The notes under the pieces are model-generated. The model made no database searches. It was not told where the DNA came from and worked only from the letters and a program-made list of their open reading frames with translations. DNA of 64,000 bases from Takakia lepidozioides (Eukaryota > Plantae > Bryophyta). Positions 25,728 through 50,717 of this stretch are shown in pieces (within the stretch, counting starts at the first letter, position 1; each line of letters starts with the position of its first letter). Location of the stretch: positions 62,372,001 to 62,436,000 of the forward strand of contig CM060734.1 of assembly GCA_030704615.1 (NCBI GenBank), read 5' to 3'. A program made the position numbers and the translations under genes.

Positions 25728-26719
25728 ATCGAGAAACGGAGTATCTCGTCAAATGGAAGGGCTATCATCATGTGGAGGCATCTTGGGTGTGTGCCGCAGA
25801 AATGGGAAACGCGTCCGAGGCGGTTGCAGCTTTCGAAGGGCGTCCTCATAAGCGGAAGAAGCGTTGATGGGGACATCAACCTTGGAGCGTGGGGGAAGAA
25901 ATGCATGCTTAGCCCGGTTTAGCTAGCTTAGGAATCCGATTGCAAAAACTTGTATTGTACTAAACGTGCTATAAATGAAATGGATTCCAAATGTTGTGCG
26001 TCCTATTTTGTTTGGAATGGTGATGCATGGTATGGTTGGCTAGTGTGTAGAATGCATGCTAGCTTATAAAAGTGGGAGAGGTAAATTGGGTTAATCGTGT
26101 GTTTGCGTAGTGCCGAAATCGGGTGACCCCCATCCAAGGGGCAAGGAAACTTGCGCCTTCTTTGGGAGTTCACGTGCTAGTGCGCACCTGGCGCGTGCGC
26201 GTACTATAACTGCGCTACCGAGGGGGTTGCCTTGTAGTGCGGGCTAATGAGGAAGATACGTGCTTCCGTTCACGTACTATAATCGTGTAGCCTCGAGACG
26301 AAGTCGTAGTGCGGCTTCGGCGTGTTCCCGTACCTCAGGCCAACATTCCAAGGCGGACCCAATTGTAGTGATTGGGGCGCACGGTTGGTTCAAGGTTATC
26401 TTCCTAGTCAAAGAGGGTTCCAGGTGAACCCTTGCTCAAGGTGATGCCAAAAGCGGCATCATGAGCAATCGCAAGCAATGTTGTTGCAGTAAGGCGATTC
26501 GATCCTCGGGGAGGATCGTTCCTTGGCCTTGAAGTAGGCCAAGAAGAGTGCACTGGGAGGAGCTGGAGAGGCTCCACCCGTGGCCGGGACTTGGAGGAAG
26601 TCGGCCGAACTAGCTAGTGGAGAGTAGAATCAAGTGTGGGGTTTGGTTCTTTGCCATGGGACGCCATGGTACGGAAACAAACTCCTTGATGTGGGGCGCC
26701 ACAACTTGGATGTTCGTTT
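25728..26719 (+). mobile_element. 3' end of an unrelated chromoviral Ty3/Gypsy element: chromodomain, PPT and first part of the 3' LTR
   Basis: ETEYLVKWKGYHHVEASWVCAAEMGNASEAVAAF chromodomain ending at 25867; purine tract gggggaagaaa followed by TG at ~25901; non-coding LTR-like sequence interrupted at 26720. Confidence 0.75.
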
Positions 26720-27502
26720 TGTCGTGCGCATACATATCGCTACACAACTACATCGTTGTCCAAACCACACCACACATATATGCACAATAAAGTAGTCTGC
26801 CACAATGATAGAAAACCAACGAACACACTGTTTACACAAAACATGAAAACCAAACCATCACTCTTAGAAATAGTAGTCGAGCCAGGGGCACCCCAAGCTA
26901 TGGGGACTCCACCCCACAACAACCTACACTCCCATCATGAGTACACTCAGATCTAAACGCATGCAGGAGCTCGGTCGCGCAGGCTCAACTCGAGAAAGAT
27001 GAGCCGCGCGACTGCCGCTCTCGTGAAGATAAGACGGACCAGGTGTCAAACTAAACTTGACATCTGATTTAACACTTGACCTAAATCCAAGTGTTAAATA
27101 CAAATAACTAGTTTTATTCTAGCTGTTTTCACACTGTGCTTATTTAACTTGACAGCTGTCGTGCGCATACATATCGCTACACAACTACATCGCTGTCCAA
27201 ACCACACCACACATATATGCACAATAAAGTAGTCTAGCACAATCGCCCCCCTAGCTGGTGGATAGGTCCCTCTACCTCCAGATAGCTACAAGATGAAATA
27301 GCCACAACCGTACTAAGTCCTCCATCACTGTCCCTATTGTACTCAAACTCTATAGATCAAGAGGCCGGGTACAAGAGTAGCCCCATCGTTAGTCGCCGTC
27401 TTGCAATCTGTGAACTTGAGCCAGGATCTCGTGTGTTCAAGGTCTCCTAGTAGCCGGGCCTTGCGTTTCTTGTTAGCCTTCCATGGTTGTATCCACTCCC
27501 AC

Positions 27503-48644: not shown

Positions 48645-48856
48645 CCAATGTGCTGATGGTTACCACCTCCATGGGGATGCTCAACAGGGTTCATGGCCAC
48701 ACCTTGCACCTTAGTCCAGCTATTGCGCTTCACCCTGTACTTGTGATATGCACACCTTCAGCATAGACACCAGCAGAGACACGACAATGGCATAGTCGCC
48801 AGAAGCTCTAGCAACGCACCCTTATCACCCATACGATGCTCAACGTTGCACACTAC
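48645..48856 (-). pseudogene. Captured 60S ribosomal protein L8 (uL2) fragments
   Basis: Minus strand reads VVCNVEH.MGDKGAL.RASGDYAIVVS and, after a deletion, [35 protein letters not shown]. Confidence 0.9.
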
Positions 48857-50717
48857 AGGATCTGGACTGATCAAGGAGTCGTTTCTCCAGCATGTGACCC
48901 AGTCGAAACTATGTGGTTTGCTGTTGCAATGATGGAAGCGAGAGAGCTCGGAAGAAGCTTCACGAATTCGGCTTCAGGGACGAAATCGCTGACAACTCGA
49001 GCATTTCTGTCTCTCTCTTGTGTTTGTGACTGCAAACTCTACATCTTGCCAGGATGATCCGAAACGGAGTGATCTTACCACCCGGCTCTGCTCAGCTCTC
49101 CGAAAGCCTGTTAGATAATAGAAGCCAGGAAACCTAGAACCTTCACTCCAAAACTTCTTGACTGAATATCGGTGGAACTAGTAGAGTGCACACTGCGTGT
49201 GTGGAATGGGGCGGGAAGGTTGGTAACAGTAGCAACTCGGAATAGAAAGGGCAGCACGTCGCGCGCCATAGATTTCTAGACGGGCCACCTTCTCTGCCAC
49301 TTTCACCGCACATAATCTCCAGCCTGGCGATTCAATTCGAGATCTTGGCTGCAAGACTTGCCGGTACGAGCTTAACGCTTCTCAAGTGATGTCACCCGCT
49401 GAGTGAGCTCGGCAACTTCCATGGCCTGAACGTTGCCACTGTGCAAGTTAGCTGGGGAGGTGGCGTGCAAGTCAATGACGAACAACTGGTGAGGACATTT
49501 TCCTGCCTTTCCCCCCCTTCCCTCCTCGCTTCGGCATCCTTTCAATGTACTAAGCTAGTGAGCCATGGCCAGAACTAACACCTCCTCTCCATTCAGTTTG
49601 ATCACCCTTTGCACCTCTGCTCCCGCATTTCTCTCCACTACTTTGAAGAGTCCACACCCGCATCTTTATACCGGAAGCTGGCTTTTCAACAAAACCACAA
49701 CCCAACTAAGGCATCTGAAAGCAAGATCGGGAAGAGCACATCGAAACTCTCCACGTACAAGCCGGGGTCCTCCAGATTCCATGCCCGTACCACCTACTTC
49801 CCCAGCAACGAAACCAGACCCTCTTCAAGCTCTACATCATCGTCTTCAAAGTACCGCAGGCCTGGCCGTCACCTGCTCCAAAACTTGTAGACAGCTTTTC
49901 CCAAGCACTGTCCTTTCCTAGAAAACTCGGATGCCCACACTCTTCCGCACATTGGCGAATTGGGCCTTCAACATACAGATGTGACTTTTAACTCCCAAAA
50001 TGTTTGGGCCTGAGCAGCTCTCCAGCTATCCATTTCACTCCAGGCACTTTGTATTCATCCTAGGGACGTTGTGTAGTGCAGATATCAGCGTTCACAGCTT
50101 GCCAGTGCTGCTCCATGCTGCATTTTTAAGTCTCTCCTTGTGTACTCCAAAGCCTCTGGTGACTTGGTAGCTTCAGCGACTGTAATAACAGTGGCGGCTC
50201 CGGCATCGTCATCCTCCAGGCGTTTCAGGGCACGCTGAATCTTGTGGTCACATTCAATGATATGCTTCTCAAACTAAGCACTACTTACACACAGGTAATC
50301 TTGCAAGTGCTAACCCTCAACTCCTACCTTGCACTCACAGGTAAGAGATCATCTTTCTCGAGTGATAGAAAACCAACGAACACACTGTTTACACAAAACA
50401 TGAAAACCAAACCATCACTCTTAGAAATAGTAGTCGAGCCAGGGGCACCCCAAGCTATGGGGACTCCACCCCACAACAACCTCCTACACTCCATCATGAG
50501 TACACTCAGATCTAAACGCATGCAGGAGCTCGGTCGCGCAGGCTCAACTCGAGAAAGATGAGCCGCGCGACTGCCGCTCTCGTGAAGATAAGACGGACCA
50601 GGTGTCAAACTAAACTTGACATCTGATTTAACACTTGACCTAAATCCAAGTGTTAAATACAAATAACTAGTTTTATTCTAGCTGTTTTCACACTGTGCTT
50701 ATTTAACTTGACAGTTT

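Follow-up and report, generated by a model that had tools for sequence, protein, structure and literature searches.

Split direct repeats and internal insertion ends in a Ty3/Gypsy-type retroelement of Takakia lepidozioides

Retroelements with long terminal repeats (LTRs) are defined by an integrase that acts at both ends of a linear complementary DNA (cDNA). Two complete insertions in the bryophyte Takakia lepidozioides raise the question of whether the ends of the inserted element need be the ends made by reverse transcription. They lie in a 64,000-nucleotide stretch (GenBank assembly GCA_030704615.1, contig CM060734.1, positions 62,372,001 to 62,436,000 of the forward strand; hereafter ‘the window’, numbered from its first base), encode the domains of a Ty3/Gypsy retrotransposon, and carry split direct repeats in the order A1-body-polypurine tract (PPT)-B1-GC-A2-B2. 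The original prediction from this stretch attributed the arrangement to a circle with two tandem B-GC-A units, opened by the integrase at an internal junction. Here we argue, at a probability of roughly 0.7, that this is a Ty3/Gypsy element whose insertion ends lie at a palindrome inside its LTR, and that its DDE integrase likely cuts there, not at the cDNA ends.

Insertion ends and reverse transcription signals

The inner copy (30543..42587, plus strand) is nested, in opposite orientation, in the reverse transcriptase (RT) gene of the outer copy (26720..50713, minus strand), which it interrupts. In the inner copy, A1 (30543..30900) starts with TGTC; the PPT (42082..42099), which has an equivalent position in relatives, is followed by B1 (42100..42185, ending with CACGACA), the GC spacer (42186-42187), A2 (42188..42500) and B2 (42501..42587). 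The corresponding parts of the outer copy, all on the minus strand, are A1 (50364..50713), PPT (27244-27261), B1 (27157-27243), GC (27155-27156), A2 (26807-27154) and B2 (26720-26806). Both copies begin with TGTC, end with GACA and are flanked by 4-bp target site duplications (TSDs), GGTC at 30539-30542 and 42588-42591 for the inner copy and GTTT at 26716-26719 and 50714-50717 for the outer. These coordinates, and the sequence GACAGCTGTC, which occurs exactly twice in the window, once in each complete copy, bear out the layout and termini as first described. The proposed length of A (~310-360 bp) is also correct, the ~310-bp inner A2 owing its size to a ~45-bp deletion, and the A2/B2 joint reads TATCATTGTG in both copies, as had been noted. 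Since the two bodies are 95.7-97.9% identical, they represent two insertion events of one family; the claim of independent insertions holds for the events, within a single family. Of a third copy (21936..25726, plus strand) only the 5' part is present, comprising A1, the primer-binding site (PBS), a segment of its own with a squalene-hopene cyclase fragment, and the start of the body.

The internal B1/A2 junction, a putative integrase attachment (att) site, is the palindrome CACGACA-GC-TGTCA (42179..42192 in the inner copy). The insertion ends lie at this palindrome, with its 2-bp spacer lost and with 4-bp TSDs. Contigs from 4/4 runs (3 studies) contain the inner target site uninterrupted, with a single GGTC, so the inner TSD is a true duplication. 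Given this empty site in reads and the recurrence of the layout in relatives from other assemblies, an assembly artefact was rejected. Both complete copies contain many frameshifts, which may reflect decay or assembly error. Reads overlaid on the att site gave no usable loose ends; summed read depths, which are not copy numbers, suggest a very abundant family, and no relative was found among viral contigs.

Pfam profiles give the order gag-protease-C5 methyltransferase-RT-RNase H-H2C2-integrase core-PHD, with gag and protease below the Pfam cut-off. RT and RNase H (38679..40200, plus strand) precede an integrase (40416..41844, plus strand) with an H2C2 domain, a D-D-35-E core and a C-terminal PHD finger; the triad is kept in both complete copies, and the best solved relative is Ty3 integrase. 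The predicted H2C2/DDE integrase is therefore present, and the order gag, protease, RT, RNase H, integrase with these two features is that of Ty3/Gypsy elements. As the original prediction also held, a tyrosine recombinase was not seen: no such Pfam family was found in 91, 85, 80 and 74 frames, nor did one occur in the domain annotations precomputed for 81 and 94 homologues. Its inventory of the element had overlooked the C5 methyltransferase (between protease and RT), the C-terminal PHD finger, the self-priming PBS and the third copy from 21936.

Signals for reverse transcription lie elsewhere than the insertion ends. In 3/3 window copies, a stretch of 14-17 bases immediately behind A1 matches perfectly, as its reverse complement, a site midway along A (shuffled controls reach a maximum of 9-10 bases), consistent with a PBS of the self-priming rather than the tRNA type. 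In the inner copy, the PBS is at 30901..30915 (plus strand), and the complementary site at 30698..30712 (plus strand) would be the self-primer and the 5' end of the transcript. The two sites co-vary: the outer copy has T in its self-primer site (50547-50561) and a compensating A in its PBS (50349..50363, minus strand), where the other two window copies have C and G. A predicted fold of the 5' RNA end pairs primer with PBS (z -4.4), with a start position that was chosen by the analyst, so that the fold is not independent evidence. Self-priming arrangements of this kind have been described for Tf2 (PMC5341516) and predicted for Tcn1 of plants (PMC6317226).

With a PPT immediately 5' of B1, the element has a PBS 3' of its 5' repeat and a PPT 5' of its 3' repeat, as Ty3/Gypsy elements do. 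Because the self-priming PBS follows A1 and the PPT precedes B1, B-GC-A is taken as the true LTR, with B as the probable proximal part of the unique 3' region (U3) and A as the probable distal U3, repeat region (R) and unique 5' region (U5). Within the window copies, A1 is separated from A2 by 0 and 3 substitutions, compared with 17-25 when the repeats of different copies are compared; their last 80-90 bases are likewise homogenised within copies (0-1 substitutions, vs 14 between). Together with the primer sites, this supports B-GC-A as the unit restored by reverse transcription. From the positions of these sites, the ends made by reverse transcription fall at the A2/B2 joint; if the A shared by the joints belongs to both PBS and B, the cDNA would end in TATC and ATTG, not in CA and TG. 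The provirus, by contrast with the paired LTRs that define Ty3/Gypsy elements, is not bounded by two full LTRs; a full LTR stands at the 3' side only, followed by B.

Related elements

Relatives were taken from the best 80 of 550 confirmed metagenome stretches found in one scan. A or B repeats were recognised in 43 of these 80 loci, and removal of 5 duplicates left 38 distinct loci. They make up two further families (families 2 and 3), one with A of ~338 bp and B of ~116 bp, the other with A of ~300 bp and B of ~176 bp; window repeats gave no BLAST match to the repeats of either. The ends of a fourth subfamily (L010, L011, L045, L067) and of L003 were not readable. In all three families, B starts right behind the PPT and A1 ends at the PBS. 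The original prediction had seen in B-GC-A a ‘TG...CA unit’ that starts right after the PPT; this is probably coincidence, and a TG...CA unit at the reverse transcription ends was rejected, as B of the relatives starts with AGTTG or ATACA and A ends with TTTTC or TTCAAT.

Among the 38 loci, 17 have the 3' form PPT-B-GC-A-B and 11 the form PPT-B, closing at a GACA-type end (two of the latter, L032 and L074, have common flanks and may be one event); the others include 2 cut by a contig end inside A2, 2 with an interrupted B, 2 with internal deletions and 3 of which only the 5' end is present. Copies of the form A-body-B are thus common. All 5' ends that could be read (20/20; 17 loci and 3 window copies) begin at TGTC with no B in front, and the mirror form A-B-GC-A-body-B was found at 0/20 of them. 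The B1/A2 palindrome noted in the window recurs as CACGACA-(2 bp)-TGTCA in 20/20 related loci from two families, with a spacer that in every case is GC or differs from GC by transitions (GC 8, AC 6, AT 4, GT 2; one spacer was read after correction of a 1-base offset). Over 12 complete elements (2 from the window, 10 loci), 4-bp flanks match at 41/48 bases (permutation p ~1e-5), vs only 32-40% at lengths of 2, 3 and 5-8 bp; a 4-bp TSD is within the 4-6 bp usual for Ty3/Gypsy elements.

Repeats within an element are closer than repeats between elements, with transversions of 0.022 vs 0.033 for B (n 12) and 0.026 vs 0.049 for A (n 5), although no more than 3-5 of 12 B copies have their own partner as nearest neighbour. 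The best PBS complement in family 3 lies 31-33 bases behind a TATA-like box in 10/10 copies examined (9-13 of 13 bases; the set excludes 3 copies that have a tandem duplication where A ends), and L055 has a compensated PBS/self-primer variant. Also in family 3, the A2/B2 joint varies in length in 7/14 copies, as compared with 0/13 at the A1/PBS joint (Fisher p 0.006), a pattern like that expected of repaired cDNA ends.

A quick tree of 96 rows was built from those of the 80 loci that were long enough (73, less duplicates), 21 proteins and 2 window segments, with no named Ty3/Gypsy references. A single clade of 78 of the 96 rows (SH-like approximate likelihood ratio support 97) unites the window copies, both further families, and proteins of Marchantia, Calypogeia, Closterium and Klebsormidium. 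The tree does not separate the two end forms, and two loci with full LTRs fall outside this clade. Related proteins are found in Marchantia, Calypogeia, Sphagnum, Closterium and Klebsormidium; among named RT relatives, those of liverworts are closest. Together with a PPR-DYW gene and the squalene-hopene cyclase fragment in the window, these liverwort relatives point to a non-seed land plant as the probable host. The split-repeat architecture is conserved in this old green-plant Gypsy lineage. P0078, a distant RT relative that branches outside the clade, has, instead of the C5 methylase, an adenine methylase domain (PF05869).

Integration route and alternatives

How could such a provirus arise? 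Transcription may start inside A1, and the first 13-15 bases of the RNA would pair with the site that follows A1 and so serve as primer for the minus strand, in the manner of the Tf elements of fission yeast; the PPT would prime the plus strand at the start of B. Reverse transcription of the LTR type would then yield a linear cDNA with two copies of B-GC-A and with ends that lack the conserved TG/CA. Integrase would bind CACGACA-GC-TGTCA in the upstream LTR and nick each strand after CA, which would create two ready-processed ends at once, each with a 5' overhang of 2 bases; their transfer to target strands with a stagger of 4 bp would produce the TSD and discard the GC, both of which agree with what is observed. 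The two reverse transcription ends would be joined by end-joining, before or after integration, to form the A2/B2 joint, and the product, A-body-PPT-B-GC-A-B, could be transcribed and copied again. Copies of the form A-body-PPT-B might arise if both sites are cut, through a circle with one LTR, or if B1 and B2 recombine later, possibilities between which the sequence does not discriminate; as their 3' end has neither distal U3 nor R, they would be dead ends. Cutting might be confined to the upstream site if, once the second strand transfer has taken place, that site becomes fully double-stranded before the other, although this is a guess.

There are retroviral precedents for the central step. 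HIV-1 integrase cuts a palindromic LTR-LTR junction after CA on both strands in vitro (PMC1905944), and foamy virus integrase likewise cuts the LTR-LTR junction after CA on both strands, with the loss of 2 bases (PMC1180852). These palindromic junctions, with a spacer of 2 bases in foamy virus, are closer to the window element than the IS3-family transposases to which its junction had been likened. In the retroviruses, as these reports describe them, the site is formed by joining cDNA ends and the provirus is colinear; in the window element, the LTR itself contains the templated site, and the provirus is a permuted form. With somewhat less confidence than we place in the internal cut itself, we favour the fuller account that an old green-plant Ty3/Gypsy lineage relocated its att site into the LTR, always cuts the junction in the upstream LTR, and leaves its reverse transcription ends to be joined by repair.

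Several observations weigh against cutting of an internal att site in the upstream LTR. The strict preference for one of two identical sites is left without explanation, and the form counts come from 38 loci of one metagenome scan, not from a genome census. One locus, L027, ends exactly at A2 (L027:13165-13457) without B2, the only one of 20 such 3' ends to do so, and could represent one-ended integration; an opposite-strand B end (L027:7555-7715) is nested in its body. In family 2, the self-primer match is significant in only 1 of 4 copies. The A2/B2 joint is invariant in the window family (2/2) and of constant length in family 2 (4/4), while L044 and L053, which share the same 2-base loss at the joint, form one small clade, so that some inheritance of the joint, in place of its renewed formation in each copy, is possible. 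Finally, a frame of 232 codons upstream of gag (33341..34039, plus strand), present in all three window copies and absent from relatives, has no assigned family, and a remnant of a tyrosine recombinase could be hidden in short broken frames, given that Pfam overlooked the decayed methyltransferase of the relative L029.

The alternative that survives best, unlikely as we consider it, is a symmetric circle: the cDNA ends would be ligated first, and the integrase would open the closed 2-LTR circle at either of its internal junctions. The provirus is indeed an exact circular permutation of a 2-LTR circle, its A2/B2 joint resembles a circle junction, and in HIV-1 a 2-LTR circle can, once linearised, integrate (PMC4372172). 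Two equal sites would, however, predict equal numbers of the mirror form, which is not seen at all, as opposed to 11 copies with a simple 5' A and 3' B-GC-A (0.5^11 ~0.0005). A symmetric circle would need an added bias, or rapid A/A recombination that collapses mirror copies into A-body-B. The lack of a mirror form leads us to prefer a model in which linear or incomplete cDNA is cut at the upstream site over one in which a closed circle is opened. What stands of the originally proposed circle is the regeneration of B-GC-A, the ends at the internal CA-GC-TG and the integrase-type TSD; its two symmetric units do not.

We regard as improbable a route like that of PAT, TOC1 and Ngaro, in which the RNA would run through B2, the A2/B2 joint would be inherited, the internal B/A junction would template both ends, and the integrase would only insert the product. 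PAT and Ngaro have an identical A1-B1-A2-B2 layout (PMC4157794, PMC7192593), the joint is invariant in 2 of 3 families, and L044 and L053 combine a common joint variant with a common clade. Ordinary LTR priming, on the other hand, is indicated by the self-priming PBS behind A1 and the PPT ahead of B1; within copies, A1 and A2 are homogenised up to their 3' ends, and in family 3 the joint varies.

Still less probable, in our estimation, is that a tyrosine recombinase, supplied in trans or by a frame that was not recognised, integrates a circle in the manner of the DIRS group. The layout is that of tyrosine recombinase elements, and the 232-codon frame lacks an assigned family. Neither 80 loci nor 171 proteins contain a match to this frame, and a protein atlas gave nothing for it; the DDE triad is kept; and the flanks are target duplications that differ between insertions, unlike the GC spacer. 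To our knowledge, PAT and Ngaro, which belong to the DIRS order, leave no integrase-type TSD.

Scarcely tenable, and already largely refuted, is a cut-and-paste or composite origin, with A, B or the whole unit as a TGTC...GACA DNA element, or with A+B as a separate element beside an ordinary Gypsy: the ends are short inverted repeats with 4-bp TSDs and Ginger1 DNA transposons do use Gypsy-related integrases (PMC12863088), but B starts exactly at the PPT and A1 ends at the PBS in three families, the internal joints have no TSD, the repeats are regenerated jointly in each copy, and Ginger transposons have an integrase and no RT, whereas the window element has RT and RNase H. A, or A+B, as an independent element was rejected.

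The layout itself has appeared before, in one figure legend and without explanation: KnitGypsy-Dnmt3 of the alga Klebsormidium nitens is given DIRS-type repeats and Gypsy domains (de Mendoza et al. 2018, PMC5890265, Fig. 4c legend), and shares with the window element a Gypsy pol with a C5 methyltransferase and repeats in the order A-coding-B-A-B. Unlike this algal element, the window element belongs to a land-plant lineage and has a PHD finger. As the passages on KnitGypsy-Dnmt3 contain no ends, TSD, att site, PBS or mechanism, the original statement that no such group had been described fails for the layout, and stands for these other features as far as those passages go. A literature search that did not cover subscription journals found the split-repeat layout with Gypsy domains only in PMC5890265, where the name ‘KnitGypsy’ is likewise confined; the available portions of bioRxiv 10.64898/2026.05.21.726589 have no passage on the layout. 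Two RT proteins of K. nitens (P0051, P0058) fall in the window clade, a matter of clade membership only, by which they are not equated with KnitGypsy-Dnmt3. What appears to be new is a self-priming PBS that co-varies with a site in A, a putative relocated att site, a variable joint of the ends and a proposed one-sided cut.

With canonical Ty3/Gypsy elements, including Tf1/sushi and Tcn1 (PMC6317226, PMC5341516), the window element shares the domain order, D-D-35-E, PPT, 4-bp TSD, self-priming PBS and the loss of bases between CA and TG. It differs in that the provirus is not bounded by two full LTRs, the putative att site lies inside U3, pol includes a methyltransferase, and a PHD finger stands behind the integrase in place of the chromodomain of the Tcn1 and Tf1/sushi chromoviruses. 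PAT, TOC, Kangaroo and Ngaro resemble it in their A1-B1-A2-B2 split direct repeats and internal copy of the end-to-end junction (PMC4157794, PMC7192593); the same sources assign tyrosine recombinases to PAT and Ngaro, and the window element has a DDE integrase, a 4-bp TSD and a Ty3-type RT, with no tyrosine recombinase found. The element is thus Ty3/Gypsy-like up to the cDNA, departs from that group in its unpaired LTRs, and is not a member of the DIRS order.

In this element the genomic ends do not coincide with those made by reverse transcription, and all three families preserve this separation. It offers a natural substrate for the old question of whether junction cleavage or circles are a real route of integration, and a simple way in which the split repeats of PAT and Ngaro could be derived from paired LTRs. 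If the proposed route is correct, LTR elements would have a third way to integrate, one that escapes programs searching for paired LTRs and that would serve as a working model for the origin of split direct repeats from ordinary LTRs. Surveys based on paired LTRs (e.g. PMC6317226, with LTR-FINDER) would be expected to overlook such elements or to misplace their boundaries. The occurrence of relatives in Marchantia, Calypogeia, Sphagnum, Closterium and Klebsormidium makes the route testable in model plants.

Captured segments and neighbouring sequence

Each window copy has a different ~2-kb segment between PBS and body (30916-33010 in the inner copy, plus strand; 48396-50120 in the outer, minus strand; 22530-24240 in the third). 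These segments contain intronless-looking fragments of host genes, with an A-rich tract at the end: the outer segment has a fragment of ribosomal protein L2 (PF03947 E 1.5e-9), the third an antisense fragment of squalene-hopene cyclase, and the inner GMP synthase-like and E2-like fragments with weak matches. Relatives of family 3 also diverge from one another over 0.8-1.6 kb in this position; those of family 2 do not. Routine capture of pieces of mRNA is possible. Further downstream in the inner copy, gag and aspartic protease (34702..36900, plus strand) are frameshifted and have weak Pfam matches, and the C5 cytosine DNA methyltransferase domain (37376..38511, plus strand; PF00145 E 3.7e-5; 94 homologues) is also frameshifted.

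The third copy breaks off at 25726 into another Gypsy element, of which a purine tract, a probable LTR and a chromodomain (PF00385 E 2.7e-8) are recognisable; the outer copy is inserted into this element (window positions 25727-26719 and from 50714). An isolated 370-bp piece of an integrase start (55521-55901), 90% identical to that of the inner copy, lies inside unrelated repeats and may be a captured fragment. Elsewhere in the window are a tandem array of five ~400-bp units (1-1908), an intact-looking, intronless PPR-E-DYW gene of 822 codons (2031-4499, minus strand), fragments of an F-box and leucine-rich-repeat gene (17711-19064, minus strand) and a zf-RVT fragment of the non-LTR type (19620-20339).

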